Below, piece after piece: positions 27,307 through 63,097 of a stretch of DNA of 64,000 nucleotides. The notes below the pieces were generated by a model, which was not told the DNA's origin, ran no database searches, and worked only from the letters and a program-made list of their open reading frames with translations. The DNA is taken from NCBI GenBank assembly GCA_965216295.1, contig OZ244141.1:78163-142162 (forward strand), given 5' to 3'. The stretch comes from Minisyncoccota bacterium (GTDB lineage Bacteria; Patescibacteriota; Minisyncoccia; Phycocordibacterales; JABAAK01). A program made the translations under genes and the position numbers. Numbering within the stretch: the first letter of the stretch is position 1; every line of letters begins with the position of its first letter.

Positions 27307-27340
27307 TCTAATAGTAAGTGTAACACGATATTACAAATTG

Positions 27341-27412: not shown

Positions 27413-27423
27413 TGTGGTGGTGT

Positions 27424-27687
27424 CTAGGATTGAATTGACTTGGCACCCTTCCGCATCAATTGAGCCTTTTTCCTCGACGCGGTATTCTTTTTAATAACAC
27501 CACTCTTTTCTGCCTTATCTATTGCTTTCTGAGCCGCTTTCACAGATTGCGACTTCCCACCAGCATCCATAGTACTATCATTTGTTGTCTTTATTGTCTG
27601 ACGCATTGTGCGTAGGCGACGCACGTTGTAGACATATCGACGCTTTGAAGCGCGAATTTCTTTCTTTGCAGAGCTAGTAATAGCCAT
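27424..27687 (-). CDS. rpsT: 30S ribosomal protein S20
   Basis: MAITSSAKKEIRASKRR...NVRR...RTMRQTIK is the S20 N-terminal signature. Confidence 0.8.
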   Translation of the reverse strand: MAITSSAKKEIRASKRRYVYNVRRLRTMRQTIKTTNDSTMDAGGKSQSVKAAQKAIDKAEKSGVIKKNTASRKKAQLMRKGAKSIQS

Positions 27688-27764
27688 ACACACACTGTAC
27701 ACACAACTGTCGTAATGAGCAATGATTCCCTATCCCACATAACCCTTTGACGGTATACTGGTGA

Positions 27765-28328: not shown

Positions 28329-28358
28329 TGTGTTACAACTCACTCTTGCTATATACTG

Positions 28359-29444: not shown

Positions 29445-29473
29445 TACAACCCTGGTATGATGCCGATGGTGAC

Positions 29474-29547
29474 CCGCCCATAGCTCAGTTCGGTAGAGCG
29501 GCGGCCTTTTAAGCCGACGGTCCCAGGTTCAAATCCTGGTGGGCGGA
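29474..29547 (+). tRNA. tRNA-Lys (anticodon TTT)
   Basis: ...TAGCTCAGTTCGGTAGAGC...anticodon loop CTTTTAA...GGTTCAAATCC. Confidence 0.8.
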
Positions 29548-29568
29548 CAAGTAAAACTTTCTATCTAT

Positions 29569-44983: not shown

Positions 44984-45466
44984 CTATTGTATGATAAAAT
45001 TAAGGAATTTTAATGAAACCAAATCAGGGTTAACGGTATTTAATATTATATAGGATCCTATAAGGATAACCAAACTCAATAATCCATTTTTTAGCACTGT
45101 TAAAGCCTCCTCTCGCCCCTTCACATGACCACCCGCAGTTAGTGCTAATAGCCTTACCCCATAAAAGGCAATAACAACCGTAGTAAATATTGCGGCAAGA
45201 GAAAAGGCAATTTTAAAAAGTGCCGTCAATAATTTTCGAATTAACTTATTTATTTCTTCTTGATCCTTAATATTAACTCCAATCCCAGCTCCGGGTGCGG
45301 GAGGTTTAAATCCTGGTATGCCAACAGAAAAATAAATTGTTTGCATTTGGTTTTGAGAAACAGCGGTCATTTTTTGTATAGGGGTGGTGAAAAAAAACAG
45401 CGCTGTTGTAAAAAAAGCAACCACTATGGTAACGCAAATGTATTTATAGCTCGATAGTAAAATCAT
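44984..45466 (-). CDS. Small membrane protein, candidate VirB2/TrbC-like pilin
   Basis: Signal-like N-terminus plus two C-terminal hydrophobic helices. The size and topology fit T4SS pilins. There is no sequence-level family proof. Confidence 0.3.
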   Translation of the reverse strand: MILLSSYKYICVTIVVAFFTTALFFFTTPIQKMTAVSQNQMQTIYFSVGIPGFKPPAPGAGIGVNIKDQEEINKLIRKLLTALFKIAFSLAAIFTTVVIAFYGVRLLALTAGGHVKGREEALTVLKNGLLSLVILIGSYIILNTVNPDLVSLKFLNFIIQ

Positions 45467-46969: not shown

Positions 46970-48790
46970 TCAACTTACCGAATCATCACCACCCTCCTTT
47001 TTAGATTTTATTCGGAGCAGTTGAGATGGATCAGAGGTAATAATCTGATCTTCTGTGTAAGAAGCGATAATTTTAATAGCAACTCTTTTAAGGCCGGCGA
47101 CAAACAAACCCTCCCCAACCGCTGATTCTAAGAGTAAAAACTTTTCATTATCTGTAAGGTTAAAAATTTCTTGTAACCTCTCTATTGATGTTGCAGATTG
47201 TCGTAGCAAAAGAACCAAAGAGGCGTTGTTTAAAATTGGTTTTCCGTAAGGAGAGTTTAAGAAATCACTAACATCTTGTGTGATTGTGGCAACTCCAAGA
47301 TAGTATTTTCTACCACGCTTTACCAATCCAAACAGAAAAATAGCACTCGCCTCATCACGCATCATTACCCACGCTTCATCGACAACCAGGAGTCGTTTGC
47401 GTAATACCTTACGCACATTGTTCCATATATAGTGTGTAATAATATACATTGCTGCAGGTTTCAACTCATCTTCCATATCTCTAATGGAAAAAACAACCAA
47501 ATCTTTATTCATATTGACATTAGTTGGTTGATTGATAAAACCAGACCATGACCCTCCTGTATATTTTCCAAGACGACCAACCAACCCCTCACTCCCATCC
47601 AAACCAGCAAGTACTAAGGCAAAATCAGAAAGCAGTGGCGCTTCCGCGTTTTCAAAGTTAGCATTTGGAGTTATGTCTTTCAAGGCGTATGTCTCTGTAA
47701 TAGCTTTATCAAGAAGAGATTCTTCTGCTGCGGTCAGATTGCCTAAAAGAACACGGAACAATCCAACAAGATCAATAATATTACTTCGCAAGACATCGGC
47801 TGGATTTTCATCCTCACGAATAGCAGGAAGATCAAATGGATTGATGTGATGTTCTGAATTAAGTGAAACATTGAAATGCCGACCATCAACCGCCTTAGAT
47901 AGAGGTTCAAACTCCATCTCAGGATCAATAACAATAACATTAATACCTGCCATCAATGATCGCAACACTTCCAATTTCATAGCGTATGATTTACCAGCAC
48001 CTGATGTTGCAAAGGTAACCGAGTTGTAGTTTGGTAATGAAAAACGGTCAAATAGTATGAGTGATGCGTTATGCTGATTAACACCATAGAGAATCCCTCG
48101 ATCTGCAGAAAGACCGAATGAGACAAATGGAAATATGCTTGAGAGTGGTTCTGAGTTGAGTTTGGTGTGTATAGAAAGCACATCATTTGCAAACGGGCTA
48201 GTGCTCTTAAATCCCTGCTCTTGTTGAAACAAACTTGGCTTTACGAATATAAGACGACCATCAAGGAGTGATCGCAAATCCTTTTCTGTATCTGCTAATG
48301 ATTCCAAAGAATCACCATAGATAGTAATGTATATACCAACATCAAACAACAATTCTGTTGCCTGTTGAATTCGATCACGCAAATGCTCCAAATCTCTCCT
48401 CGCAATATCAAGTTTTGGATCACGAACCATACCCTTACGTTCTCTTTCCAGAATCTGACTCTCCACCTGCGCAACCTTCTTTCTAAAATCACGCAAAACA
48501 TTTTTTGTCTCAATGGGGTGTATGTGTATAGCGATGTCAAATTCTCTGCTAATGTTGATGATTGGTGTAAACCAACCCTCATTTAAAAAGCGAGGATACG
48601 AGACTATTGCAAGTGTCCGTGCGTACTTACCACCAAGCTCAATGTGTTTGGGAGCAACTTTGATTGCTGCGGGGGCAATAACATCTCGCAACCCAATACT
48701 GCTACGCTCAAACATTTCTTGTGGCATAAAAGAGGTAACCCCTTTCCCCTCCACAGCGCTTTTCTTTTTAAAAATATCTAAAAGTCCCAT
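46970..48790 (-). CDS. VirB4/TraC/TrsE-family conjugation/type IV secretion ATPase
   Basis: Walker A FATSGAGKSYAM, Walker B LLVVDEAWVMM, and the VirB4 N-terminal domain pattern (IELGGKYARTLAIVSYP). Confidence 0.8.
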   Translation of the reverse strand: MGLLDIFKKKSAVEGKGVTSFMPQEMFERSSIGLRDVIAPAAIKVAPKHIELGGKYARTLAIVSYPRFLNEGWFTPIINISREFDIAIHIHPIETKNVLRDFRKKVAQVESQILERERKGMVRDPKLDIARRDLEHLRDRIQQATELLFDVGIYITIYGDSLESLADTEKDLRSLLDGRLIFVKPSLFQQEQGFKSTSPFANDVLSIHTKLNSEPLSSIFPFVSFGLSADRGILYGVNQHNASLILFDRFSLPNYNSVTFATSGAGKSYAMKLEVLRSLMAGINVIVIDPEMEFEPLSKAVDGRHFNVSLNSEHHINPFDLPAIREDENPADVLRSNIIDLVGLFRVLLGNLTAAEESLLDKAITETYALKDITPNANFENAEAPLLSDFALVLAGLDGSEGLVGRLGKYTGGSWSGFINQPTNVNMNKDLVVFSIRDMEDELKPAAMYIITHYIWNNVRKVLRKRLLVVDEAWVMMRDEASAIFLFGLVKRGRKYYLGVATITQDVSDFLNSPYGKPILNNASLVLLLRQSATSIERLQEIFNLTDNEKFLLLESAVGEGLFVAGLKRVAIKIIASYTEDQIITSDPSQLLRIKSKKEGGDDSVS

Positions 48791-48791
48791 A

Positions 48792-49397
48792 CTATAGTTT
48801 TGGTACCGGCGCAGTGTCGCCCGGATTAAATGTTTGATACAACAATTCGGTAACAGCTTCGGTGTCTAGGCGAACAGCGCGAAGGCCTAAAGAGCGTATG
48901 TTATTTTGCACAAAAGAAACGCGTTGTTGTAGTTGTGTTTGAGCCTCTTCAAAGAAATTTTGTTGCTCGTTTGTTTTAGATTTTTTAAATGATAACGTTA
49001 GTGATTTTATTTGCACTGGAGAATAACCAATAATAAGAAAAAACTGCTTCGTCATAATTTCATTTGATTCAGTAAATTCAGTAATAAATTTGATATATTC
49101 TTTGGTTTGCAATCTCAACAACTCTACCTCCTGTTTGTTGTAAAGATTTTCTAAATATTCTAGGTGCTTTTGTATATTGAGGCGACGAGATTGTATAAGA
49201 ATCTGTATATTCACCTCTAATGAATTAAGCATACTCTGGAACTGATTGAGTATCGCTTCACGCTCCAAGTCAGACTTTAGATCAAAGTTTAATGAAGAAA
49301 CCAGCACGATTGCACAGAATATACCGTCCTCTCGAATGATAGTGCCATCTCGTATTTCTTTCAAAGGAACAAATGACTGTGTTGTTTTCTGTTTCAT
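48792..49397 (-). CDS. Hypothetical cytoplasmic protein, possibly a VirB4 N-terminal-domain-like accessory
   Basis: VPLKEIRDGTIIREDGIFCAIVLVSSLNFDLKSDLERE resembles the start of the VirB4/TraC N-domain. Immediately upstream of the ATPase. Confidence 0.3.
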   Translation of the reverse strand: MKQKTTQSFVPLKEIRDGTIIREDGIFCAIVLVSSLNFDLKSDLEREAILNQFQSMLNSLEVNIQILIQSRRLNIQKHLEYLENLYNKQEVELLRLQTKEYIKFITEFTESNEIMTKQFFLIIGYSPVQIKSLTLSFKKSKTNEQQNFFEEAQTQLQQRVSFVQNNIRSLGLRAVRLDTEAVTELLYQTFNPGDTAPVPKL

Positions 49398-49400: not shown

Positions 49401-49823
49401 CTATGATGTTTGCCGACTGTCTTGAGAAAATTGTATCTCAGTAAGTAATTCTTTAATACGATCTGATTCATTATGATCTTTTTGAGTTTCTGAAACTTCT
49501 TCATTTTTTTGAGCCACTCTTTTTCGTGTAACCGCAACAGATTCTTGTTGTTTGTTCCAGACATATAATTTATCATTCAAGAGATATGTCAGCATTGCTC
49601 GAAGCAGGTCTATAAATGATTGGCTGTTGTGTTTGTAAAACGCTAACAATCCTCCAAGAACTCCAACAGGAGCACCCACAAGCAACGCGGTCCCAAACCC
49701 AACAAAGAAGAATAAAAAAATAAAGAGTCCAAGAGCTCCTCCTATGTACACAGCCTGCACAAAACTGAGCCCAAACAAAATGGTATCTGGAATATCAAGG
49801 TTTTGTGGTACTTGAAACCGCAT
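49401..49823 (-). CDS. Small 2-TM membrane protein (VirB3/PrgI-like candidate)
   Basis: Two adjacent TM helices followed by a charged tail. Positioned before the VirB4-like gene. Confidence 0.35.
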   Translation of the reverse strand: MRFQVPQNLDIPDTILFGLSFVQAVYIGGALGLFIFLFFFVGFGTALLVGAPVGVLGGLLAFYKHNSQSFIDLLRAMLTYLLNDKLYVWNKQQESVAVTRKRVAQKNEEVSETQKDHNESDRIKELLTEIQFSQDSRQTS

Positions 49824-50179: not shown

Positions 50180-52096
50180 TTATTTATTATCACCTTTCTT
50201 TTTGGTACCATAGTATTTGTGAGTAAATTCCCTTGATGCGTTCGTGATTTTCCTTGCTCTATCATTAAGGATTTTTTTAGCAAATGCAATTCTTGCATCA
50301 CTATTTGGAGGAGCTTCTTTTGCTCGACCACTTCCTGCAATAATCTGATCAGCCTTCTTTCCATCCACCTCTCCTATTCTATCTGGATGATGTTGATTCA
50401 TGAGAAGTTTGTACTGATCTCGCATTTTTTCAGGAGAAGTTTCGTTTGACGTACCAAGTATTGCGTGATAGTCATCACCACTCACTTCATCAAGCTGTTT
50501 TCCTGTTGGAGGGGTATATCCTTTTTCTGTGCCATCTGAAGGGTTGTATGGGAGTGCCAGTTTTGATTCTTGTAGGTGTTCTAAACGACGGTTTTTGGGT
50601 ATCGGTGATCCACCACCACCACCACCATCATCTCCTGCTACTGATGGACGAGGGTTAGTTGAAGTTTTTTTATCTTCTTGTGTTTTAGCATCTTTCTTGC
50701 CACCACGATGACGATTAAAGAAGCCAGAAGCAGCACTTGATTTGAATAATATATGTCGATCTTTTAGCGATCTCCCCCCTTTCTTCTTATCACCCTGATC
50801 AATTGATCGTACATCACCAACAAACTCCTTTGTTATTCTCTTTGTTGCTTTCCCTACAGATGTTTTTCCAAGCCAAGCAGCTCTCCTTTTCGTCCACCCA
50901 TGAAATTGACCTTTTCCAACACTATCCGAAAAATCCCTCCCCTGCCATCGCCAATAATTTCGCAAATTCTGCAAACGACCTGTCAAGTTCACCCCGCCCT
51001 TAAGGGCTTTTTGTATCTTGTTAAAGAGACTGATAACGTGGAGTATGAGGAATATCGTAAGGAAGGCGAGAAAGATACTTCCTATAAATTCCTCATAAGG
51101 ACTATTTCCCAAATTTTCATTAAGTATCTTATCCATCAATTCTGTTATTTTAAATACAAACCATAATAGAAAGAAAATAATAACCGGCATTAACGCGGTG
51201 CTCTGTAATTTACCAACCCACCAGATTTTAAACTTTCCAAAAACATTCTTACCATCACCTCCGACAAATAAGGCAATTACGGCAATTGGTGATGTGATGA
51301 GTACAAGAATGGCAACAAAGAATCGTTCAAAAAAGAGAATGATAAGGTAGAAAAATGATGCTGCGAGAGCAAACTTGGTAATCATTGAGAAAAGATGAAA
51401 AAGAATACTCGCTTTAGCGATTGCGGTAGAGCCAGCGGGTGCACTGGCGCCAGAAGATGCACCCGAAAGGGAAATTTTTTGGTGTAAATTGGGATTTATA
51501 AGGTTATCAGCATACAAAGAATACAAACCAGATTGCTGTTGGAACAGAAGTGCAAACAGATTTGATACATCATAAATAAACAATACAAAAAAACCACTAA
51601 AGTTTACCAACAACGCAGCAATAAGTAGTCGTACCAACGTTGCCTTGCTATACCATCCTGGCTTTTCTCGAAGATGACTAAAAACAATCCCAACAGCGAT
51701 AGTTATGAATAGTGCAACAATAATAAGATTGGCGACATCTCTAAAAAACACCCAAACATCCTGAATAATACCTGATTCAGTGGGTGCAACAATGGTGCTA
51801 AATTCCAAGACAGTGAGTGTGGTGGCATGACGAAGCGCATCAAGAGACAAGTCTAATACATTACTTCCGATGGTGTTGTTAAGAAAATCAAACATTAGCT
51901 CAACAACCTTATAAATGGTACCAATAATTGCTGATGCCACCGCCCCCGCCCCCCCCGCTACATCTATTGGTGTTTCTGGTTTCGGAAATCCTGGTCCTTG
52001 TGCGAAGACCCATTGCCAGTCAACAAGTAGTACAACAAGCAATGCAATACAACACCACCCAGCTGTTTTAAATATTGTAATATTCACTTTTTTCAT
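50180..52096 (-). CDS. VirB6/TrbL-like polytopic membrane protein with a C-terminal J-like domain (HPD motif)
   Basis: Signal plus about 6 TM and a cytoplasmic tail ending in DDYHAILGTSNETSPEKMRDQYKLLMNQHHPDR (J-domain-like helix II/III with HPD). Confidence 0.5.
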   Translation of the reverse strand: MKKVNITIFKTAGWCCIALLVVLLVDWQWVFAQGPGFPKPETPIDVAGGAGAVASAIIGTIYKVVELMFDFLNNTIGSNVLDLSLDALRHATTLTVLEFSTIVAPTESGIIQDVWVFFRDVANLIIVALFITIAVGIVFSHLREKPGWYSKATLVRLLIAALLVNFSGFFVLFIYDVSNLFALLFQQQSGLYSLYADNLINPNLHQKISLSGASSGASAPAGSTAIAKASILFHLFSMITKFALAASFFYLIILFFERFFVAILVLITSPIAVIALFVGGDGKNVFGKFKIWWVGKLQSTALMPVIIFFLLWFVFKITELMDKILNENLGNSPYEEFIGSIFLAFLTIFLILHVISLFNKIQKALKGGVNLTGRLQNLRNYWRWQGRDFSDSVGKGQFHGWTKRRAAWLGKTSVGKATKRITKEFVGDVRSIDQGDKKKGGRSLKDRHILFKSSAASGFFNRHRGGKKDAKTQEDKKTSTNPRPSVAGDDGGGGGGSPIPKNRRLEHLQESKLALPYNPSDGTEKGYTPPTGKQLDEVSGDDYHAILGTSNETSPEKMRDQYKLLMNQHHPDRIGEVDGKKADQIIAGSGRAKEAPPNSDARIAFAKKILNDRARKITNASREFTHKYYGTKKKGDNK

Positions 52097-52102: not shown

Positions 52103-55100
52103 TTAGAAAAAGGGGCGCGGCACATTAACATCAGGTATATTAACAAAATCATCCAATCCAGACGGCGGTGTAGTTATTTTCCGAATACTTTCATCCCTAA
52201 TCCCATAATCAGTTTTCAACGACCTATCTTTTGTTCTGGACGATCTATCACCACCAGGAACTGATTTCCAGAAATTGGAATAATCCCCCAAAATCTTTTG
52301 CTGAACTCGTCCTCGTAACGCAGCGTTATACTGTCTGCCAATTGTATTGCTACTGAATTTTGTTGCCCTAAAGGTCTGAATAGCATCATCATCTTTACTA
52401 AAAATTCTAGCAAAATTAACTGTTTTTGCTTGATCATATCCTGTTCCGTATGTTCCGTAAGATTGTGACTGTAGATTAAATGTAGGAGTGTTTTGTAATG
52501 TTATGTTGGGAATATCAATTATTCCATTTTCATAAAATAGGTAAATGACTCTGGACAACGCCCGAGCTATATTCTTGGTTTTTGTTTCACGAACTTCCTT
52601 TTTCAATGTATTAAGTGTACCTGATTCACAAAAACCTTGGCCCTCAACAGTAACATTAATTTTATCTGTACATTTTTTATAAGCAGGCGCTGCCCCGTTT
52701 TTAATTTTTTTCACAAGAGCTTTCTCAACATTTTGTGGCGTGACTTCATCACTTCCCACCAACTTACTCCTAATTTTCTTTACCCCCTCATTTCTCTCAT
52801 TTTTATACCCATCACTCAAAAAAACATCATCCTCTCCTCGAACACGGAGATATACTCCTAACGTAGATTTATAATCACCAACCAGCTTTTCAGCTACTAT
52901 CTCTTTCTGTTCTAGGTAGGATAAGTCATTGTGAAAATTTCTAAAAGAAAGATTGTTAACATCTTCGTAATAGAGGAATGTATCAGAAACATTCTTCTTC
53001 TCATCCACTATAGTGGTTTCAGTCACATCAATCTTTTTTGTTTTACGACTAATGATGACAATTTTATTCCGCCTCTCTAAAGTTTCTTTAATTTGCACTT
53101 TGGCTTTGAATCCAGAAGGTATCTCGCCGAGCACTTGCTTGCTTTCCAAACTCTTTTTCACATGATCTTTATATATCTCATAAGCTTTATAATCCTGGTC
53201 AAGTTTGGGGTTTGTAACAAGATAGTTGCCCTCATTACCAATGACACCACTCAATAAGTATCGAGCATCACCCGCTGCTTCGACATATTCTTCTGCTTCT
53301 GCGTAACCACTTTCGTCTATAAACGCTACAAAGACCGAATCACCTCCATTAGCAAGTGCATTCGCATTACGATCAAGTTGACCGGTGTCCACCGCATCTA
53401 TACCTCCTTCTAAGAGGTTTTGAAAAACATTACTGAATGTTTGCTCTATTACACTAGATAGAAGGCTACCAATTTCACTAAACTCATCAGCTTCAGACAC
53501 TTGTTCGAGTGGCAGTTGTGAAGCGAATGAAAAGCTTTCTGAGATTAAACTGTAATCCTGATATATAGTTGGTTGTGTTAAGCAGTTAATAAAAGCATCA
53601 ATATCAATCAATCCATCAGAGTTATAACTTCCATCACTACCACACCCATCAGCCTTGTCAGCATCATGACTAGACATAAGAGCTCCAGTTTCAGATGTTA
53701 CCTGCTCTCTCTTTGAAACCGTATCACCAGATATATTATTACGAATCTCTTGTGCATCAAAGAATGTTCCAATGTATAGTTCACTAAACGACTGTGCTAC
53801 ATTAAATGGTCTAAAAGTCACATCTTCTTCTATAATTTTCACATTAACATCTATATCCACATCCACGCCAAAATCAACAGTGCTTTTATTAATATTGTCA
53901 AATATATCACTCCCCTTACACGCCCTGGTTTTAATAATACCAATCCCCAATTCATCCTTTATAAGGCGTGTAAAATCAAGATTAAGGCTGTCATTACAAA
54001 AGAACCCCAAACCCTCTCCTGTCAAAAAACTTCCAACAGCCTCGTCAGCTAAATTTTTCCAGTACTCAGAAGGATTGTCTTGGAAAAAATTTGCTTCATT
54101 GCTCCAATTTACATATTTAGAAAGAAGACCTTGGGTTAGCGCGCTTGAAGCGATTCGTGCAATTCCATCGAGAAGACATTCCTTACCCACATTTGCCAGA
54201 TCGTTAGTTGGTACGCTGATTATAGAAGCGAGACCTCCTAGACCAGCAGCCAAGCAAGCAAGCAAGGTCGCCGCTGCCGCCACAACGCCCGATAAAAGAC
54301 TGCTGCCCGATCCACCACCACCACCACCTCCTTCACCTTCAAGAAGTGTTTCACCAAAATCTTCAAAATCTTCATCTGAGTTTGTTTGCACTTTTAAAAA
54401 TTCAGGTGCCACCACCTCTTCTTCATTCAACCCTTGATAAACAGCAGATATACCCCAATCTCCATCTGTTAGTTTTAAACGAACGCTACCATCACCCTTT
54501 CTTGTTTTTTCTACAACTTCCCCCGTATCTTGATTGAGCGCCACGATAGTTATTTCAATATTAGGAAATCCAGACACTTCAATTCTGTTGTCTATTTCTC
54601 CAGAAGGTGATTCAAAACCCAAAGTTTTGTTGGGCGTTTTTATCTCCAACAGGTCAGGAACATTTGTGGTTATTTCCTTACCTAAACTATCTTTATATGT
54701 AAAACTCAATGACCACTTACCATTTCCTAGAAGTAAGTCTATATAATCATTATCTTTTTGCCTTTCCTTTTTCAAAACCCGATTCCCTCTAGATGCTTTA
54801 ATAGTTATTGGGGTTTTTGGGTCTGCACTATTTATGTTATTTATTGTTATTTTATTTATTAAATTTTCACTAGGTGAAGTAAAGGAGAGAAATATGGGTT
54901 TGAGTGAAGAACCACCACCTTCTTCAGAACCAGATGGATCCCCACCACCATCTTTTTCAGAACCAGATGGATCCTCACCACCACCTTCTTCAGAACCAGA
55001 CGGATCCCCACCACCATCTTTTTCAGAACCAGACGGATCCCCACCACCATCTTTTTCAGAACCAGACGGATCCCCACCACCATCTTTTTCAGAACCAGAT

Positions 55101-55606
55101 GGATCCTCATTACCACCTCTGGGATTATTAGTTCTTCTAGTGATAAATTTTATAAAAGCAGCATTCACAGAACTTCCGGTGTATAAGGAATTATTCCTTC
55201 CAGCACCGTTAAGATTGGAACCATTACCACCATCAAAACCAGACGAACCATTACCACCATCAAAACCAGACGAACCATTACCACCACCACCATTACCACC
55301 ATCAAAACCAGACGAACCATTATCACCATCAAAACCAGACGAACCACCACCACCTCCAGGAGCAGTTGTGCTACTATCAAGGTCACCACCAGGAGGTTTT
55401 ATATTAAATATCCTAGCCAAATCTTTTGATGTTTTTGGTTCTAAAGAAGTTCCTCTTAAGGACGGGTCTACCAAAACCTCGCCATCTCCTAGTCGATCAA
55501 GCGTTCCTCGTTTTGCTTCGTCACCCTCTAAGATAAATAAATAGACACCGCTCGCTACCAAAACAACCACAGAAACAACACCAATAAGGATAAATCTAAA
55601 AGTCAT
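52103..55606 (-). CDS. Giant (1167 aa) Gly/Asp/Pro-rich repeat protein with an N-terminal TM and an internal hydrophobic segment
   Basis: Repeats (GNGSSGFDGG) x4 and (DPSGSEKDGGG) x6; poly-Gly stretches; mid-protein TM (VVAAAATLLACLAAGLGGLASII). Confidence 0.5.
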   Translation of the reverse strand: MTFRFILIGVVSVVVLVASGVYLFILEGDEAKRGTLDRLGDGEVLVDPSLRGTSLEPKTSKDLARIFNIKPPGGDLDSSTTAPGGGGGSSGFDGDNGSSGFDGGNGGGGNGSSGFDGGNGSSGFDGGNGSNLNGAGRNNSLYTGSSVNAAFIKFITRRTNNPRGGNEDPSGSEKDGGGDPSGSEKDGGGDPSGSEKDGGGDPSGSEEGGGEDPSGSEKDGGGDPSGSEEGGGSSLKPIFLSFTSPSENLINKITINNINSADPKTPITIKASRGNRVLKKERQKDNDYIDLLLGNGKWSLSFTYKDSLGKEITTNVPDLLEIKTPNKTLGFESPSGEIDNRIEVSGFPNIEITIVALNQDTGEVVEKTRKGDGSVRLKLTDGDWGISAVYQGLNEEEVVAPEFLKVQTNSDEDFEDFGETLLEGEGGGGGGGSGSSLLSGVVAAAATLLACLAAGLGGLASIISVPTNDLANVGKECLLDGIARIASSALTQGLLSKYVNWSNEANFFQDNPSEYWKNLADEAVGSFLTGEGLGFFCNDSLNLDFTRLIKDELGIGIIKTRACKGSDIFDNINKSTVDFGVDVDIDVNVKIIEEDVTFRPFNVAQSFSELYIGTFFDAQEIRNNISGDTVSKREQVTSETGALMSSHDADKADGCGSDGSYNSDGLIDIDAFINCLTQPTIYQDYSLISESFSFASQLPLEQVSEADEFSEIGSLLSSVIEQTFSNVFQNLLEGGIDAVDTGQLDRNANALANGGDSVFVAFIDESGYAEAEEYVEAAGDARYLLSGVIGNEGNYLVTNPKLDQDYKAYEIYKDHVKKSLESKQVLGEIPSGFKAKVQIKETLERRNKIVIISRKTKKIDVTETTIVDEKKNVSDTFLYYEDVNNLSFRNFHNDLSYLEQKEIVAEKLVGDYKSTLGVYLRVRGEDDVFLSDGYKNERNEGVKKIRSKLVGSDEVTPQNVEKALVKKIKNGAAPAYKKCTDKINVTVEGQGFCESGTLNTLKKEVRETKTKNIARALSRVIYLFYENGIIDIPNITLQNTPTFNLQSQSYGTYGTGYDQAKTVNFARIFSKDDDAIQTFRATKFSSNTIGRQYNAALRGRVQQKILGDYSNFWKSVPGGDRSSRTKDRSLKTDYGIRDESIRKITTPPSGLDDFVNIPDVNVPRPFF
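54910..55125. repeat. Tandem 33-bp repeats (about 6 copies) encoding DPSGSEKDGGG units
   Basis: ttcagaaccagatggatccccaccaccatcttt repeated with minor variants. Confidence 0.8.
55219..55355. repeat. Tandem 27-bp repeats (about 4-5 copies) encoding the GNGSSGFDG units
   Basis: accaccatcaaaaccagacgaaccatt repeated. Confidence 0.75.
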
Positions 55607-55625: not shown

Positions 55626-56486
55626 TTATTTACTCAGTTCTTTTATAATATCTTGCAAACTCTGGAGAAAAACATCAAACTTTACCGTCGTCGTACCTCC
55701 TTCCGGAGCATTCGGGTCAGTTGGGGCTAATAAACGTATACCCAACACAACATTATCAGCTGTTGGAGGTAATAATGAAACATCTACCGCAGCACATGAG
55801 TCAGAAACCCTTTTGATAAATAGTGTGTATTGCGAATATATTGCGTGTGGTACTCGTCGTGGTAACTTTTGAAGTATCTCTTGACACAAAAGTTGTAATT
55901 GAAGCGCTTCTTCACGACGACCTTTCTCATTTGCAAATGCCCCAATAACAATTTTTTCTACAGGAGTTTTTATAGCGCCAAGTAACTGAATTGCAGAAAT
56001 GAATTCAGAGAGCACCGCGCCCCTATCAACCGAATCATCAACTTGCACAACCAAATCTGAATCCTCGCTTTTTGATAATTTTTTAGTAACATCTGCAACA
56101 GAATCTTTTACTATTTGATCAATCTCTTCTTCAGTTACATTTTTGTAACCATCTCGTGAATATAATATTTTGCGCAATACATCAGAGGTACGCTCACTCG
56201 GACCACCTTGTTCTTCTGTCGTTCGTGCCGTTGCCTCATCAATTTCTGCTTGGTAAGCAAGTGATGTTGGATTATCTGGATCTGTTCCTTTAAGAACTTC
56301 CAGCCAATTCGGCACGCCATCACCATCAATATCTTCATCTGTAACAGAATACTTGGTCAAAAAAATATTTCCTGGTTCCTTATCAATATTGTTGTATAAC
56401 CATATCATCAGTACGATAAACCAAAACACAAAAAAAACAATGAGTATAAATAATGTTTTTCTCTCTACTAGGGGCATTCGCCGCAT
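55626..56486 (-). CDS. Membrane-anchored extracytoplasmic protein (first gene of the T4SS-like cluster)
   Basis: N-terminal TM (LFILIVFFVFWFIVLMIWLY); DGDGVPNWLE calcium-binding-like motif. The track ORF extends to 56594. Confidence 0.4.
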   Translation of the reverse strand: MRRMPLVERKTLFILIVFFVFWFIVLMIWLYNNIDKEPGNIFLTKYSVTDEDIDGDGVPNWLEVLKGTDPDNPTSLAYQAEIDEATARTTEEQGGPSERTSDVLRKILYSRDGYKNVTEEEIDQIVKDSVADVTKKLSKSEDSDLVVQVDDSVDRGAVLSEFISAIQLLGAIKTPVEKIVIGAFANEKGRREEALQLQLLCQEILQKLPRRVPHAIYSQYTLFIKRVSDSCAAVDVSLLPPTADNVVLGIRLLAPTDPNAPEGGTTTVKFDVFLQSLQDIIKELSK

Positions 56487-56994
56487 TTGAGGAGGACGTT
56501 TTTCCAATCGCCCATTCTTACTATGCTTATTGTGAGGTGTTGGGTGAGGATGCATACACACAGTATATGGTAAAATGAAGTGTGGTGATATCAAACAGTA
56601 ATCAAACCTCTTTGGCGATAAGAGGAAAAATTGCCATTATTGTATGGAGTCTCTCTTTCTTCGCATTTTTTAGTCCTCAAGAAGTAGACGCGTTTTTCAT
56701 ACCCGAGGGAGGTCGTATATTAATTGCTCTCCCGCCCTGCCATCTTCCTATCCCCGGTTCAGTATGGACGCTCAGTATTAATTTAGCAACCAAATTACCT
56801 CACCCAGAACTGCGATTTCCCGTAGCACCAAGAGCACACTATATTCCACCACTACCTATAACAAATACTTTAGGACAAGCATTACCCATCAGGTTGCCGT
56901 GCTGTTGGTATATAGGGATAGCTATCATATGCAACCCTGTTCCAGGATTTCTTCCAGCACCACCCTCTCTTTACGGTGCCTCTTTTTAGAAAGA

Positions 56995-57938: not shown

Positions 57939-58526
57939 TTATTTCAGAGCCGTTTGATCCATTACCCCTCTCAATTCATCAAGTCTCTCATCCAACGCGA
58001 CAGTTATCCGAGTTCTATAAGCAGAAATGACATCAACAGGTAACCTTAAAGTCTTACTATCAGCAAAATACTCTTTGCTCGAGTTCATAATGCTTTCCAC
58101 ATATGCAGGATTATCAGCCTGAGCATTGCAGTCGCGAACATAGATAGTAGTAATAGCATCAACCATCATGAGGTCTTCTCCGTTTACATGGAGAAGTAAA
58201 CGGCAGTATTCACCACCATCAACTCCCAAAGCATCATCAATACGACTAAAAACCGAATCACAATAACCCAATTTTTCAACCGCAACAACACCATCTTCAA
58301 GAGCGTGAACTATTCCAATGCATGTCTCCGATTTTCCGGATTCGGGTGAATGACGCTCACGCCACACAGACGCAACATAAGGATATGTTTTTTCGGTCAC
58401 ATTTTCCGGAGTTGTGGAAGTTACATCAGGGTACCCTCCAGTTCCAAAAGACGGACTCGCAGCAAACGCCACGGGAAAACTAAGCAGGGTGGCAAGAGTT
58501 CCACCAAACAAAAATTTTATATTCAT
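57939..58526 (-). CDS. Secreted small Cys-containing protein, paralog family member A
   Basis: Signal peptide MNIKFLFGGTLATLLSFPVAFA|ASPSFGTGGYPDV. GGAGAAG RBS. Four conserved Cys. The track ORF 57939..58568 uses an upstream TTG. Confidence 0.6.
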   Translation of the reverse strand: MNIKFLFGGTLATLLSFPVAFAASPSFGTGGYPDVTSTTPENVTEKTYPYVASVWRERHSPESGKSETCIGIVHALEDGVVAVEKLGYCDSVFSRIDDALGVDGGEYCRLLLHVNGEDLMMVDAITTIYVRDCNAQADNPAYVESIMNSSKEYFADSKTLRLPVDVISAYRTRITVALDERLDELRGVMDQTALK

Positions 58527-58609
58527 AATACTTCTCCAAAGCAATGAAAAACAAAAAACCCGCACCAAAGATACAGGCAGACTAAAGAACGATAATCTAA
58601 TCCAAAAGA

Positions 58610-58638
58610 ATTGTACTATATAAACATGTGGTTGTCAA
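58610..58638 (-). promoter_or_regulatory. Sigma70-type promoter of paralog A
   Basis: Minus strand reads TTGACA-17 nt-TACAAT, about 85 nt upstream of the ATG. Confidence 0.6.
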
Positions 58639-58650
58639 ATAGCTGTTTAG

Positions 58651-58686
58651 TATAAAAACAAAGATGCGCTCATTGCTGAGCGCATC
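58651..58686 (-). terminator. Intrinsic terminator after paralog B
   Basis: Identical hairpin plus U-tract. Confidence 0.7.
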
Positions 58687-58713
58687 TAAAGACTAAAACC
58701 TAATCGCGAACTC

Positions 58714-59298
58714 TTATTTCAGAGCCGTTTGATCCATTACCCCTCTCAATTCATCAAGTCTCTTATCCAACGCGGTAGTTATCCGAGTTCTATAAGCAGA
58801 AATGACATCAACAGGTATCCTTACTTTACTATTAGCAAAATAATCTTTATATTTTTCCTTCAAATTCATCATGTCTTCTATATATGCAGGATTACCAAGC
58901 TGAGTATTACAATTGCGAACATGGATATTAGTAATAGCATCAATTGGCATAAGATTAAGATCCACCACTTTTTTGTTGAAATAGCAGTATTCACCAACAC
59001 CAACTCCCAAAGCATCATCAATACGACTAAAAATCGAGCCACAATAACCCAACTTTTCAACTGCAAAAACATCATCTTCAAGAGCATGAACTATTCCAAT
59101 ACATTCCGGTTCATCAGGCGACCAGGACTCATACCACACATCCAGAATATAAGGATATGTTTTTTCGGTCACATTTTCCGGAGTTGTGGAAGTTACATCA
59201 GGGTACCCTCCAGTTCCAAAAGACGGACTCGCAGCAAACGCCACGGGAAAACTAAGCAGGGTGGCAAGAGTTCCACCAAACAAAAATTTTATATTCAT
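58714..59298 (-). CDS. Secreted small Cys-containing protein, paralog B
   Basis: Same signal peptide and N-terminus as A; diverged middle; C-terminus conserved with A (VISAYRTRIT.ALD.RLDELRGVMDQTALK). Confidence 0.6.
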   Translation of the reverse strand: MNIKFLFGGTLATLLSFPVAFAASPSFGTGGYPDVTSTTPENVTEKTYPYILDVWYESWSPDEPECIGIVHALEDDVFAVEKLGYCGSIFSRIDDALGVGVGEYCYFNKKVVDLNLMPIDAITNIHVRNCNTQLGNPAYIEDMMNLKEKYKDYFANSKVRIPVDVISAYRTRITTALDKRLDELRGVMDQTALK

Positions 59299-59381
59299 AA
59301 TACTTCTCCAAAGCAATGAAAAACAAAAAACCCGCACCAAAGATACAGGCAGACTAAAGAACGATAATCTAATCCAAAAGA

Positions 59382-59410
59382 ATTGTACTATATAAACATG
59401 TGGTTGTCAA
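59382..59410 (-). promoter_or_regulatory. Sigma70-type promoter of paralog B
   Basis: TTGACA accacatgtttatatag TACAAT on the minus strand. Confidence 0.6.
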
Positions 59411-59422
59411 ATAGCTGTTTAG

Positions 59423-59456
59423 TATAAAAAAGGTGCGCTCATTGCTGAGCGCACCT
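59423..59456 (-). terminator. Intrinsic terminator after paralog C
   Basis: GGTGCGCTCA-gcaa-TGAGCGCACC variant with compensatory stem change, plus TTTTTTAT. Confidence 0.7.
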
Positions 59457-59543
59457 AAGGGCTAAAACCTAATCGCGAACTCTTATTTCAGAGTTGTTTA
59501 ATTCACACCGCCTATTTTAACCTAGCAATCTTCCTCTCAGTCA

Positions 59544-60023
59544 TCAGGACTTAGATTCAGAAATAAGATTAGCAGGTGATAGTTGTGCTCTGTTAGCAAG
59601 AAACTCTTTATATTTTTCTTTCAGGTTATCAAGACATCCTTGAGAGATGTCAGCAGAACCATTACAGCTCAACTGAGCACCAGTTCGAACATAGATGGTT
59701 GTAAAAGTATCAATTTTTCCAAGCAGAGAATAATTCTTCGAATCTTTCAAACTCAACAAATAATTACAATTCGGATCATCATCACCCACTTTTTCAATCA
59801 TGAGAACACCGTCTTCAAGAGCATGAACTATTACAATGCATCTATAATCTAGTGATCTATAATTCCACACAGACATGAGACGAGGATACGGAGCCGCTTT
59901 TTCCGGAGTTATGGAAGTTACACCGGGGTACCCTCCAGTTCCAAAAGACGGACTCGCAGCAAACGCCACGGAAGAGCTAAGCAGGGCGACAAAAACCGCA
60001 CCAAACAAAAATTTTACATTCAT
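59544..60023 (-). CDS. Secreted small Cys-containing protein, paralog C
   Basis: MNVKFLFGAVFVALLSSSVAFA|ASPSFGTGGYPGV; C-terminus of type GCLDNLKEKYKEFLANRAQLSPANLISESKS. Confidence 0.6.
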   Translation of the reverse strand: MNVKFLFGAVFVALLSSSVAFAASPSFGTGGYPGVTSITPEKAAPYPRLMSVWNYRSLDYRCIVIVHALEDGVLMIEKVGDDDPNCNYLLSLKDSKNYSLLGKIDTFTTIYVRTGAQLSCNGSADISQGCLDNLKEKYKEFLANRAQLSPANLISESKS

Positions 60024-60104
60024 AATACTTCTCCTAAGTAATTTAAAATGAGTCCTGCGCCAAAGATACAGGCAGACCAAAGAACGATAATCTAATCCAA
60101 AAGA

Positions 60105-60133
60105 ATTGTAATACATAATAGTGTATTTGTCAA
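60105..60133 (-). promoter_or_regulatory. Sigma70-type promoter of paralog C
   Basis: TTGACA aatacactattatgtat TACAAT. Confidence 0.6.
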
Positions 60134-60145
60134 ATAGCTGTTTAG

Positions 60146-60179
60146 TATAAAAAAGGTGCGCTCATTGCTGAGCGCACCT
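60146..60179 (-). terminator. Intrinsic terminator after paralog D
   Basis: Same GGTGCGC variant. Confidence 0.7.
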
Positions 60180-60266
60180 AAGGGCTAAAACCTAATCGCG
60201 AACTCTTATTTCAGAGTTGTTTAATTCACACCGCCTATTTTAACCTAGCAATCTTCCTCTCAGTCA

Positions 60267-60752
60267 TCAGGACTTAGATTCAGAAATAAGATTAGCAGGT
60301 GATAGTTGTGCTCTGTTAGCAAGAAACTCTTTATATTTTTCTTTCAGGTTATCAAGACATCCTTGAGAGATGTCAGCAGAACCATTACAGCTCAACTGAG
60401 CACCAGTTCGAACATAGATGGTTGTAAAAGTATCAATTTTTCCAAGCAGAGAATAATTATCCATAGAATAATTTTCTATCGTAAAATTCCACAAAGAATC
60501 ACAATTCGAACTCACTTTTTTAATCATGAGAACATCCTCTTCAAGCAAATAAGCTACACCAGCACAACCAGAATCCGGCGAGTATCTCTGTTTCCACACA
60601 GACATGAGACGAGGATACGGAGCCACTTTTTCCGGAGTTATGGAAGTTACACCGGGGTACCCTCCAGTTCCAAAAGACGGACTCGCAGCAAACGCCACGG
60701 AAGAGCTAAGCAGGGCGACAAAAACCGCACCAAACAAAAATTTTACATTCAT
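60267..60752 (-). CDS. Secreted small Cys-containing protein, paralog D
   Basis: Near-identical N- and C-termini to C; diverged centre. Confidence 0.6.
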   Translation of the reverse strand: MNVKFLFGAVFVALLSSSVAFAASPSFGTGGYPGVTSITPEKVAPYPRLMSVWKQRYSPDSGCAGVAYLLEEDVLMIKKVSSNCDSLWNFTIENYSMDNYSLLGKIDTFTTIYVRTGAQLSCNGSADISQGCLDNLKEKYKEFLANRAQLSPANLISESKS

Positions 60753-60841
60753 AATACTTCTCCTAAGTAATTTAAAAATGAGTCCTGCACCAAAGGAAAG
60801 GTACAGGTAGACTATAAAAAACTATAATCTAATCCAAAAGA

Positions 60842-60870
60842 ATTGTAATACATAATAGTGTATTTGTCAA
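60842..60870 (-). promoter_or_regulatory. Sigma70-type promoter of paralog D
   Basis: TTGACA-17 nt-TACAAT. Confidence 0.6.
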
Positions 60871-60882
60871 AGAGCTGTTTGG

Positions 60883-60916
60883 TATAAAAAAGATGCGCTC
60901 ATTGCTGAGCGCATCT
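60883..60916 (-). terminator. Intrinsic terminator after paralog E
   Basis: GATGCGC variant plus U-tract. Confidence 0.7.
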
Positions 60917-60971
60917 AAGGGCTAAAACATAATCGCGAACTTTCGTTTCAGAGTTGTTTAATTCACACCAC

Positions 60972-61493
60972 CTATTTTAACCTAGCAATCTTCCTTCCAG
61001 ACATCACGATAAAGCTAGATCCAGAAATAAAATTAATAGTTCGTTCCCTGTTGGCAAGAAACTCTTCGTGTTTTTCTTTCAGGTTATCAAGAGAACATCC
61101 TTGAGGGGTGTCAGCAGAACCATTACAGCTCAACTGAACATCATTTCGAACATGGATAGTTGTAAAGGCATCAATTTTTCCAAGCAGAAAATAATTCTCC
61201 GAATCTCCCACCGATTTCCACGAATAATCACAATTCGTCGGACCAATATCCACTTCTTCAATCATGAGAACACCATCTTCAAGCAGATAAACTATTCCAC
61301 TACAGCCAGAATTCGGTGCGTATCTCTGATTCCACACAGATATGAAACGAGGATACGGATCCACTTTCTCTGAAATTGTGGAAGTTACACCAGAGGATCC
61401 TCCAGCTCCAAAAGATGGACTCGCAGCAAACGCCACGGAAGAGCTAAGTATGGTGATGACAAGAGTCGCACCAAACAAAAACTTTATATTCAT
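60972..61493 (-). CDS. Secreted small Cys-containing protein, paralog E
   Basis: MNIKFLFGATLVITILSSSVAFA|ASPSFGAGG; conserved Cys pattern; distinct C-terminus. Confidence 0.55.
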   Translation of the reverse strand: MNIKFLFGATLVITILSSSVAFAASPSFGAGGSSGVTSTISEKVDPYPRFISVWNQRYAPNSGCSGIVYLLEDGVLMIEEVDIGPTNCDYSWKSVGDSENYFLLGKIDAFTTIHVRNDVQLSCNGSADTPQGCSLDNLKEKHEEFLANRERTINFISGSSFIVMSGRKIARLK

Positions 61494-61800: not shown

Positions 61801-62298
61801 TCATCCCCAACCAGGGAGCAACAAGGAGTAATTCACAATTATAGAAAGGTCAGTACATTGCTCAAACCCTACAGTGCGACTCCTAATAAATTCAGGAGAA
61901 CCAACCAAAACGATAAAAGCATCATCTTGATTAGTAAAACACTGCACGAATGTATCCACAATCACCGTTTCTGAAATACACAGAAGTCCAGCAATGTTTC
62001 GCACCGTATAAGTACCATCGTAAGCACCATAGTTTTTATATGAAACAAGCTTGATAAAGCGCGGATCAGACAACGAAGTTTCAATAGAACTGTTAAAATC
62101 TATAAGATCAGGTACTTCCTCCTTGAGGGGAAGAAGATGAATAAGAGGGTGAGGTCTTCTTTCATCATTAAGAACGTTGGGAGCACCCATTACCGCCTTT
62201 CGCTCTTCATTTTGACCAATGTACTCTAGAGCAATATAATCTTTGGTTTCGGCAAGACATAATACTTGCCGATTTGGTTTTGGTTGTTGCATAAGCAA
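61801..62298 (-). CDS. Cytoplasmic hypothetical protein, MLMQQP family paralog 2 (C-terminus diverged/truncated)
   Basis: Paralog of 62519..63097 through ...SPEFIRSRTV, then diverges. GGAGG RBS. Confidence 0.5.
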   Translation of the reverse strand: MLMQQPKPNRQVLCLAETKDYIALEYIGQNEERKAVMGAPNVLNDERRPHPLIHLLPLKEEVPDLIDFNSSIETSLSDPRFIKLVSYKNYGAYDGTYTVRNIAGLLCISETVIVDTFVQCFTNQDDAFIVLVGSPEFIRSRTVGFEQCTDLSIIVNYSLLLPGWG

Positions 62299-62389
62299 AC
62301 CTCCATAATTGATTCAAAGAAACCTGCACACAACATAAAAAGTCGCGTTGCAGTAGAAAGTAGATGAATCAAATCAACTACCTAAATGT

Positions 62390-62418
62390 ATTGTAATGTA
62401 TAACAGTGTGTTTGCCAA
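62390..62418 (-). promoter_or_regulatory. Sigma70-type promoter of MLMQQP paralog 2
   Basis: TTGGCA aacacactgttatacat TACAAT. Confidence 0.55.
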
Positions 62419-62430
62419 TAGTTGTTTAGT

Positions 62431-62466
62431 ATAAAAACAAAGATGCGCTCATTGCTGAGCGCATCT
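62431..62466 (-). terminator. Intrinsic terminator after MLMQQP paralog 1
   Basis: GATGCGC hairpin plus U-tract. Confidence 0.7.
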
Positions 62467-62518
62467 TGAAAATTTCCTCCAGGTTAAAAGTACAAACTTA
62501 ATGAAGTAAAGAAAAAAC

Positions 62519-63097
62519 TTAATAGAGTTGTTGCTCCATCTGATTCATTTCCTTCTCCCTCTGAATCCCAATCTTTCCCATCAGAGAGTCTATCAACTGA
62601 TTAACAAGTGTGGGATAATGCACAACCTTAAAAGGGTCAGCGCGTTGCTCTTCATTTGTTTTCTCAAACCTTACAGTGCGACTCCTAATAAATTCAGGAG
62701 AACCAACCAAAACGATAAAAGCACCATCTTGACTAGTAAAACACTGCACGAATGTATCCACAATCACCGTTTCTGGTATACACAGAACCCCAGCAATGTC
62801 TCGCACGGTACAAGTACTACCATTTCTGTAAGTATAATCAGTTCTGGAAGATACAAATCTGATAAAGCGCGAATCAAACAACGAAATTTCAATGGATTTT
62901 TTAAAATCTATAAGATCAGGTACTTCCTCCTTGGGGGGAAGAAGATGAAGAGGACAACGAACCCCTCCTTCATCATTAAAAGGGCTGTCGTGACATGTCG
63001 CCCCCCATTCTTTATACTGATCAGAGTACTCCAGAGCAATATAATCTTTGGTTTCTACAAGATATAACACCTGCCGTTCTGGTTGTTGCATAAGCAA
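62519..63097 (-). CDS. Cytoplasmic hypothetical protein, MLMQQP family paralog 1
   Basis: No signal peptide. Conserved core ETVIVDTFVQCFT.QD.AFIVLVGSPEFIRSRTV. Confidence 0.5.
   Translation of the reverse strand: MLMQQPERQVLYLVETKDYIALEYSDQYKEWGATCHDSPFNDEGGVRCPLHLLPPKEEVPDLIDFKKSIEISLFDSRFIRFVSSRTDYTYRNGSTCTVRDIAGVLCIPETVIVDTFVQCFTSQDGAFIVLVGSPEFIRSRTVRFEKTNEEQRADPFKVVHYPTLVNQLIDSLMGKIGIQREKEMNQMEQQLY

Follow-up and report, generated by a model that had tools for sequence, protein, structure and literature searches.

The stretch of DNA analysed here (the window: 64,000 nucleotides of a Minisyncoccota bacterium, contig OZ244141.1, positions 78,163 to 142,162 of the forward strand) carries on its minus strand, beside the genes of a type IV secretion system (T4SS), a complete open reading frame (ORF; 52103..55606 in the ORF list) that encodes a real exported protein of 1167 amino acids (aa) of this ultra-small Patescibacteria bacterium. 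The protein, hereafter the target, is identical to the database protein P0001, the sole member of its cluster, and is a long-form member of an undescribed, T4SS-linked family of exported proteins with a conserved helical core. A preliminary description, made from the letters of the window, had presented it as a Gly/Asp/Pro-rich repeat protein with an N-terminal transmembrane segment. The intact minus-strand ORF and its hydropathy confirmed the length and this segment, and an internal hydrophobic segment that had also been described was recovered, though it is borderline as a membrane helix; the poly-Gly stretches were located at aa 84-88 and 425-432. The stated composition held for Gly and Asp at the N-terminus but not for Pro, which accounts for only 5% of the residues there (G 26%, S 14%, D 9%), and the bias is limited to a low-complexity region comprising the first ~240 aa. 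Two plus-strand ORFs, 53772-54437 and 54834-55544, read the target gene in antisense, the latter across its repeat region, and a promoter and terminator scan added nothing for the gene itself.

The hydropathy profile of the target shows two hydrophobic segments, at aa 3-25 and aa 436-465. The first corresponds to a transmembrane helix (TM1, aa ~5-26, 55529..55594; this and all further features of the target are on the minus strand) that is predicted to be an N-in signal anchor from hydropathy, a Hessa sum of -1.4 to -2.5 and the charges of its flanks, and which is a long hydrophobic stretch without an obvious signal-peptidase site. It is followed by an acidic juxtamembrane motif recognised by reading the sequence (aa 27-50, EGDEAKRGTLDRLGDGEVLVDP, 55457..55528), which resembles a '..EKxDDAEV..' stretch found after TM1 in other long forms. 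The N-terminal extension covers ~410 aa, of which two tandem arrays described below occupy only ~110, and contains two modules of ~85 aa each (aa 238-325, 54632..54895, and aa 327-410, 54377..54628), which are duplicates of one another (internal local alignment score 82) and probably form beta-sandwiches, Ig-like, fn3, Big and discoidin domains being found at this position in relatives. An acidic and poly-Gly hinge (aa 411-435, DEDFEDFGETLLEGEGGGGGGGSGSS, 54302..54376), in which a (GGT)n trinucleotide run was detected (CCA x5.7 at 54312-54328), leads to a conserved Ala/Gly-rich hydrophobic segment with one Cys (aa 436-465, 54212..54301), for which AlphaFold2 (AF2) gave a helix at low confidence and which probably does not span the membrane. 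The family-defining conserved core (aa 466-757, 53336..54211), delimited by the family alignments A1, A2 and A5 and by hhalign, carries the motifs VPTNDL..KECLLD..YVNW..NP..FW..GLGFFC..C..SDI ... QLPLEQVSEADE and two invariant Cys, C537 and C563. The remaining residues form a C-terminal region specific to the long forms (aa 758-1167, 52106..53335), defined by AF2 and sequence comparison. Structure prediction of the non-repeat part, which the preliminary description had proposed as a check, was only partly informative: aa ~885-1125 is the only confidently modelled domain of the target, with mixed helices and strands and a predicted local distance difference test (pLDDT) score of up to 96, while the core was modelled at low confidence.

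The genes around the target belong to a chromosomal MPF-FATA-like T4SS as described for Patescibacteria (PMC12102498), so that the T4SS-like cluster named in the preliminary description is now supported by individual components. Immediately downstream lies the gene for a 638-aa polytopic membrane protein (50180..52096, -), which occupies the VirB6/PrgH position by its place and topology and for which 'VirB6-like' is used here in this positional sense. Its Lys/Arg-rich C-terminal tail (aa 541-592) includes a weakly matching J-domain that keeps its HPD motif (Pfam DnaJ at a sub-threshold E of 2.4e-4; E 0.05-0.1 against DnaJ chains of the PDB), which hints at recruitment of DnaK to the T4SS channel. 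A 103-aa ORF separates this gene from a PrgI/VirB3-like ORF (49401-49823, -; PF12666, 2e-7, 31.9 bits against a gathering score of 27), followed by a 201-aa ORF with a TrsD-like VirB4 N-domain (48792-49397, -; matching the N-terminal parts of VirB4 models and TrsD NF041427 at 1.4e-4), a VirB4 ATPase of the CD1110 monoderm type (46970-48790, -; NF045971 conju_CD1110, E 3.2e-103, 346 bits against a cut-off of 325) and a candidate VirB2-like T4SS pilin (44984-45466, -; PF18895 T4SS_pilin, E 2.4e-5), whose 24.7 bits just miss the gathering score of 26.6. Upstream of the target, a gene for a 322-aa protein in which an N-terminal segment of ~40 residues precedes a predicted membrane helix (55626..56594, -) keeps its position in 14 related loci; at aa ~85-105 this protein has a DxDxDG-type motif (DEDIDGDGVPNWLEVLKGTDPDNP) resembling calcium-binding thrombospondin type-3 or dockerin-like loops. 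The genes of the locus are co-directional and tightly packed, with gaps of 2-88 nucleotides (nt) between ORFs and some overlaps. The VirB4 of the window shows 63-76% identity to its counterparts in 80 Patescibacteria genomes, most of which are labelled Paceibacterota, Kaiserbacteria or 'Saccharibacteria'. Its partition into an N-domain/TrsD-like ORF and an ATPase ORF, an arrangement already described for Patescibacteria, recurs in 79-80 of these 80 loci.

In direct searches the target looks like an orphan, and its family membership was resolved through synteny. No match to Pfam, NCBIfam or PHROGs was obtained for the whole protein or its core, and nothing meaningful was found among PDB sequences with the single sequence or with profiles. 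Word-indexed homology searches returned the target itself as the only match for aa 236-1167, only the target and the database protein P0002 for family alignment A1, and no match for the beta modules (aa 233-415). Among the 80 loci, which had been found via VirB4, 58 had an identifiable ORF in the VirB6 position, and in 49 of these a family gene (an ORF of at least 350 aa ending no more than 320 nt upstream of the VirB6-position ORF) was located directly upstream; all 49 fell into a single similarity cluster. Most family members have 450-600 aa and consist, as read by eye, of a cleavable-looking signal peptide followed directly by the core, with no repeats. The core is marked by the motifs VP.xD..KEC.LD ... 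W(I/A)..GF.G.P.F..NP..F ... GLGFLC ... C(T/K)LSD ... ADE..E, which the target carries as VPTNDL..KECLLD, YVNW, NPSEYW, GLGFFC (C537), ACKGSD (C563) and EADEFSE. Comparison of the long-form and short-form profiles with hhalign gave a probability of 99.3% (E 9.6e-21) over aa 440-757 of the target, and an exhaustive HMMER scan of 1.84 billion representatives returned 48 relatives, P0002 being the only close one (42% identical) and the remainder matching only around aa 410-750. About a dozen relatives of roughly 770-2000 aa are long forms built like the target. They begin with a long N-terminal hydrophobic helix and an acidic juxtamembrane motif, continue with a lineage-specific extension (200-1100 aa) and a hinge that is Pro-rich, acidic or Gly-rich, and reach the core after an Ala/Gly-rich hydrophobic segment in which one Cys is conserved; a further 400-700 aa follow. 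The C-terminal region of the target is 36% identical to that of P0002, and its aa 886-1104 weakly match the orthologue in L001, a complete Paceibacterota chromosome. No description of the family was found in the papers searched, among them a dedicated survey of T4SS components in Patescibacteria.

Tandem Repeats Finder reproduced the near-perfect 33-bp and 27-bp repeats given in the preliminary description. Array 1 (aa 83-130, 55218..55358) consists of 27-nt units (x2.6 at 55218-55286, 100% identity) nested in a 69-nt higher-order repeat (x2 at 55220-55358, score 250) and encodes GSSGFDGGN about four times. Array 2 (aa 167-232, 54911..55106) comprises six 33-nt units (x5.9, 93% matches, score 336) encoding DPSGSEKDGGG or DPSGSEEGGGE, which differ almost solely by CCA/CCG and by the KD to EG variant, several of them being identical or one synonymous base apart. 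Because the units match even at synonymous positions, the repeats are recent, in agreement with the expansion that had been proposed. All high-identity array periods inside the ORF (33, 27, 69, 42, 9 and 3 nt) are multiples of three, and slippage would therefore alter the length and composition of the protein and not its expression, which contradicts the suggestion of phase variation: none of these units provides a frameshift switch. The only other repeat row in the ORF is a (CAAG)x4 run of 16 nt (54251-54266), which is too short for a switch; period-5 and period-10 rows at 54829-54857 are low-scoring calls in an AT-rich stretch that was also called with periods 15 and 9, and no long homopolymer was reported. 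In the collections searched (the single-member cluster, the HMMER scan and the metagenome scans) there was no second copy of the target allele; the exact 33-mer repeat unit had no match in metagenomes, and a protein-pattern scan of metagenomes with the P0001/P0002 alignment gave 494 pattern matches and no relatives. The repeats are best read as an in-frame, length-adjustable, disordered spacer within a hypervariable exposed extension, and as neither a fibre nor a phase switch.

The extension that contains these repeats differs from one lineage to the next. Near-perfect tandem amino-acid repeats occur in 7 of 14 long forms, always in the extension and never in the core, and are mutually unrelated, so that long-form orthologues have different tandem repeats at the same place, as expected from the variable region that had been postulated. 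Pfam domains found in relatives include pentapeptide and decapeptide repeats, DnaJ-type, surface Ig-like, Big_2, Big_6, fn3 and F5/8-type-C domains, and the order was read as leader, domain, core for fn3 in L077, for Big_6 in L008 and for the J-like domains and pentapeptide repeats of long forms. The syntenic orthologue in L001 (1183 aa) has a 156-nt unit repeated 2.9 times at 98% identity (L001:3572-4023), which encodes a J-like domain without HPD; in the J-like tandem domains of L001, P0005, P0006, P0008, P0010 and P0022 this motif is replaced by GPQ, GPG, GPD, HSD or HAD. A J fold in the presumably extracytoplasmic extension of target orthologues is in an odd place. L081, the closest relative, shares the anchor and the ~85-aa module pair of the target and has instead of its repeats 30-nt DDSPNTPPPG arrays. 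A segmental duplication of 542 bp (93% DNA identity), which takes in the Pro-rich repeat together with the greater part of the module pair, has given L081 two module pairs, twice the number of beta modules found in the target.

Comparison with L081 also revealed how sharply the target region has diverged. Both loci have the order uvrD, small-ORF array, rsmA, 322-aa gene, target, VirB6-position gene, 103-aa ORF and PrgI, and their flanks are nearly identical (uvrD, 96.5% at the DNA level; rsmA, 97-99% at the DNA and 96.8% at the protein level). Near the 3' end of rsmA (window ~57100-56800) DNA identity falls abruptly to ~70%, and it amounts to 51-68% across the target and 51-78% through the T4SS-proximal genes. 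At the protein level, identity to L081 is 41% for the anchor and juxtamembrane region (aa 1-71), 45% for the beta modules, 44% for the core, 36% for the C-terminal region and 43% for the VirB6-position protein, rising to 60% for the 322-aa protein and 70% for PrgI; the repeats are unalignable. Against L001, VirB4 is 76% identical, while the target shows 33% identity over just 157 aa. Since the flanks are nearly identical and identity drops across the T4SS-proximal genes, the envelope-facing T4SS genes, and the target above all, are on this sequence comparison a divergence hot spot. The drop at the 3' end of rsmA resembles a recombination breakpoint beside a cassette that can be replaced, and so sharp a boundary is explained by recombinational allele replacement no less well than by gradual diversifying selection. 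The L081 orthologue is split into ORFs of 606 and 776 aa that overlap by 17 nt in different frames (L081:10000-10017); the possibility that these are two separate proteins was set aside, as the 1-nt frame change, in an assembly of long reads at 7x, is probably due to an indel error.

With respect to the location of the protein, the extracytoplasmic side is favoured for everything that follows the anchor, which agrees with the surface exposure assumed in the preliminary description. This placement is argued from sequence features of the family: the cores of short forms follow directly after cleavable-looking leaders (ending ..AYA|A, ..VYA|Q or ..AHA|Q, by eye), extracellular-type modules fill the position of the extension in relatives, the core holds two invariant Cys, and the charges flanking both hydrophobic segments agree with it. 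Over 12 long forms, the N-side of TM1 has 18 K/R against 7 D/E (net +11) and the C-side 23 K/R against 71 D/E (net -48), which is why TM1 is predicted to be oriented N-in. Both flanks of the second hydrophobic segment are acidic (N-side in the target, 0 K/R against 8 D/E), and its Hessa sum, ~0 in the target, ranges from -0.6 to +5.3 in the 12 long forms. A two-pass protein with a cytoplasmic C-terminus was considered and rejected, since the homologous cores of short forms follow cleavable signal peptides.

On balance we think it reasonably likely that the target is a long-form member of an uncharacterised Sec-exported envelope family of Patescibacteria and a fixed part of a chromosomal monoderm-type (MPF-FATA-like) T4SS locus, its core docking on the T4SS and its extension serving as a variable spacer or display region. 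According to this proposal, the protein would be held by the N-in membrane anchor at aa ~5-26, with all later residues outside the cytoplasmic membrane. The acidic juxtamembrane motif would be followed by a ~200-aa Gly/Ser/Asp-rich spacer, probably disordered, with its two recently expanded in-frame arrays, and beyond it by the two ~85-aa modules, the acidic/poly-Gly hinge, a moderately hydrophobic helix together with the Cys-containing helical core (aa 436-757) and the long-form C-terminal domain. The conserved core would dock on the T4SS, with the co-encoded VirB6-position protein or the pilus base as the most plausible site, and the N-terminal extension would be a flexible region whose length can be adjusted and which acts as a spacer or for display. 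Replication slippage, unequal recombination and module duplication would drive the evolution of the extension, and lineages may in addition exchange whole alleles; the repeat-unit events would change its length and composition and not its expression. The gene, its repeats, the family and its synteny, the hypervariability and the absence of known homologues are shown by the sequence data, and the topology, the docking and the role as spacer or in host contact are inferred.

Several observations weigh against this proposal. For docking on the VirB6-position protein the argument is gene adjacency alone, and comparison of that protein with Pfam, NCBIfam and the PDB sequences gave no match to a TrbL, VirB6 or PrgH profile; the AF2 models of the core, on which its fold and docking surface would have to be read, reach a pLDDT of only 50-74. 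The similarity baseline for L081 consists of two flanking genes only (uvrD and rsmA). Signal peptides were judged by eye, and the Hessa sums were computed with a simplified version without position weighting. Finally, DnaJ-type domains, which are normally cytoplasmic, occur in the extensions of several long forms (Pfam DnaJ down to 7e-20), and hhalign sets aa 440-460 of the target opposite the signal peptide of short forms, with low column confidence, so that this segment could be an ancestral leader and the extension would then be cytoplasmic.

The last two observations are the basis of a different topology, in which TM1 would run from out to in, the second segment would be an in-to-out signal-anchor derived from an ancestral signal peptide, and aa 27-435 would form a cytoplasmic scaffold, for example recruiting chaperones or substrates, with only the core outside. 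The Kyte-Doolittle hydropathy of the segment (~2.0 over 29 residues), the HPD-bearing J-domain on the tail of the neighbouring membrane protein and the L081 gene split, which falls exactly before the segment and would leave a stand-alone core with the segment as its leader, are in keeping with such a protein. The flanking charges are not: besides TM1, whose flanks point to N-in, the N-flank of the second segment is acidic over the 12 long forms (19 K/R against 49 D/E), the opposite of what the cytoplasmic flank of a signal-anchor shows, and in 9 of the 12 the Hessa sum is above +2, which is too weakly hydrophobic. As several short forms hold a signal peptide plus a separate Ala/Gly-rich segment, Ig-like, fn3 and discoidin modules are found behind cleavable leaders at the equivalent position, all J-like extension domains that were read have no HPD, and the L081 split is a likely error, we regard this topology as unlikely. 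The model of the preliminary description, in which the protein itself is a surface shaft or fibre and a phase-variable adhesin that switches by repeat slippage, is quite unlikely. It draws on the near-perfect tandem repeats within a T4SS locus, on the favoured extracytoplasmic placement and hypervariability of the region, and on relatives that have adhesin-type modules (Ig-like, fn3, discoidin) at the same position. Apart from the in-frame units, which leave no frameshift switch, ~110 Gly/Ser/Asp-rich repeat residues make no structural fibre and are probably a disordered spacer, the core is common to relatives that are mostly repeat-free and only 450-600 aa long, and the protein seems tethered by its N-terminal anchor and lacks LPXTG or any other wall-anchor motif at its C-terminus; the dedicated pilin candidate at 44984-45466 is the more obvious fibre subunit.

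In the Agrobacterium operon, virB5 directly precedes virB6. The family gene likewise precedes the VirB6-position gene in 49 loci, a candidate VirB2-like pilin is present in the cluster, and the family members look exported (AxA-site leaders, by eye) and are predicted to be helical, which raises the possibility of a VirB5 analogue: an exported helical-bundle core that would oligomerise on VirB6 and sit at the tip of a VirB2-like pilus, touching the host cell, with its hydrophobic N-terminal helix projecting like a pore-former and its variable extension setting host specificity. TrwJ/VirB5 superposes on TraC, CagL and Hemolysin E, sits on VirB6 in pentameric form and has an N-terminal part that protrudes in the manner of pore-forming proteins (Mace et al. 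2022, PMC9259494); ClyA/HlyE was among the top, non-significant Foldseek matches, and no VirB5 has been reported for Patescibacteria in PMC12102498 or PMC12857230. Against this stand the lack of any significant Foldseek match (best E 0.5), of a Pfam VirB5-family match in the target or in 93 scanned members (50 at E<=0.01 and 43 at E<=1) and of TraC, TrwJ or CagL among the hits of family profiles in PDB sequences, as well as a core of more than 300 aa compared with ~220 aa for VirB5 and, in the long forms, an uncleaved-looking anchor that is ill-suited to a pilus-tip subunit. We therefore consider this assignment doubtful; it would refine the spacer-and-docking proposal and does not exclude it. 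A functional VirB1 analogue, with the core as a divergent hydrolase resembling lysozyme or lytic transglycosylases that would open the cell wall for the T4SS, appears very improbable. The core is predicted to be exported and helical and has the near-invariant acidic residues D480, D521 and E711 (target numbering), VirB1-type matches are associated with virB4 mainly in Paceibacteria (PMC12102498), and one member per alignment weakly matched the catalytic domain of the type VI secretion system muramidase Tse3 (E 0.0095 and 0.017). These were two single sub-threshold matches among 93 scans, and no SLT, CHAP, NlpC/P60, LytM or lysozyme match was present in the target or the family.

For epibiotic growth the T4SS is indispensable in Southlakia epibionticum (PMC10633639; PMC12857230), the one Patescibacteria species amenable to genetics. 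The present analysis defines a conserved, previously unannotated component of the T4SS locus in Paceibacteria-type genomes, which together with its VirB6-position and upstream neighbours is far more divergent than the adjacent housekeeping genes. An exposed end that is rebuilt independently in each lineage from tandem repeats and borrowed modules is the pattern expected of a determinant of host contact or specificity, and for this reason the target is a host-range candidate: it could be the host-contact part of the machine that Patescibacteria need for life on other cells. Should the tentative and somewhat improbable idea hold that the family is the so far unrecognised VirB5-equivalent (stalk or pilus-tip) in the T4SS of Patescibacteria, this apparently pilus-building monoderm T4SS would gain a subunit for which there has been no report, the long-form extension would determine which host surface is engaged, and the locus would be a recombination or arms-race hot spot, with ~40% protein identity between genomes whose flanks are ~97% identical.

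Some further features of the window lie outside the T4SS genes. Directly upstream of them, between a UvrD-like helicase gene and rsmA, is an array of genes for five paralogous small secreted proteins (161-209 aa; 57939-61493, -), which contain Cys, have no Pfam match and share the leader MNxKFLFG...VAFA|ASPSFGTGGYP, followed by two paralogues of a second family (61801-63097, -). The counterpart array in L081 has seven small ORFs, is rearranged and shows only 70-92% DNA identity. A strong terminator-like hairpin with an 11-bp stem and a T-run (57912-57887, -) between the array and rsmA points to a transcription unit that begins at rsmA and could extend into the T4SS genes. On the opposite strand, a 135-aa ORF (56582-56989, +) lies between rsmA and the 322-aa gene, and in L081 a 132-aa gene was called at the same place and in the same orientation. 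Elsewhere in the window, six tRNA genes (His, Leu, Val, Ser, Arg and Lys) are scattered over 13798-29548, and the G+C content is 0.29 at 40-42 kb compared with ~0.40 in the rest.

Compared with the chromosomal T4SSs described for Patescibacteria (Wang et al. 2023, PMC10633639; Quinonero-Coronel et al. 2025, PMC12102498), the locus is alike in its TrsD-like ORF and VirB4, PrgI/VirB3, polytopic membrane protein, VirB2-like pilin candidate and chromosomal site, while the gene order around PrgI differs from that of the Saccharimonadia locus (SEML1_0006-0019). The components listed in these papers are VirB1, B2, B3, B4, B6, B8, TrsD, PrgF, TrsJ, Gbs1347/1350 and Orf17; the target family is not among them. 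An adhesin such as PrgB was not detected by those authors (PMC10633639, PMC12102498), and no adhesin Pfam domain was found in the target. The VirB5 family (TraC of pKM101, 1R8I; TrwJ of R388; CagL) has no sequence or profile similarity to the target family, and the structural match of the target core to VirB5 is no better than that to unrelated helical bundles. The target differs from VirB5 proteins by its larger core, its conserved Cys and its long C-terminal domain, to which the long forms add an anchor and a 400-aa extension. Hydrophilic in-frame repeats serve as variable-length flexible spacers in the Ser-Asp repeat regions of Clf/Sdr proteins, in the Pro/Gly-rich regions of M protein and in TraO of pIP501. 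The target is similar to these wall-spanning proteins of Gram-positive bacteria in its acidic Gly/Ser/Asp/Pro-rich in-frame spacer repeats, and it differs in being anchored by an N-terminal helix, in having the conserved domain C-terminal and not N-terminal to the spacer, and in its C-terminus (...PSGLDDFVNIPDVNVPRPFF), where neither LPXTG nor a terminal hydrophobic segment could be read. CagY of H. pylori resembles the target family in being a T4SS envelope part that combines a conserved machine-binding part with a repeat-rich, fast-evolving exposed part in an organism living on another cell. The same combination is seen in the 'extended' VirB6 proteins of Rickettsiales (PMC7648143) and in arrays of VirB2 paralogues (PMC12102498). 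The target family is not known to be homologous to any of the three, its variable part lies N-terminal to a novel core, and this part differs wholly by lineage, consisting of Gly/Ser/Asp units, Pro-rich units, J-like domains, pentapeptide repeats or beta modules. The family is a variable, repeat-bearing envelope component of the T4SS that is conserved and had been unannotated until now.

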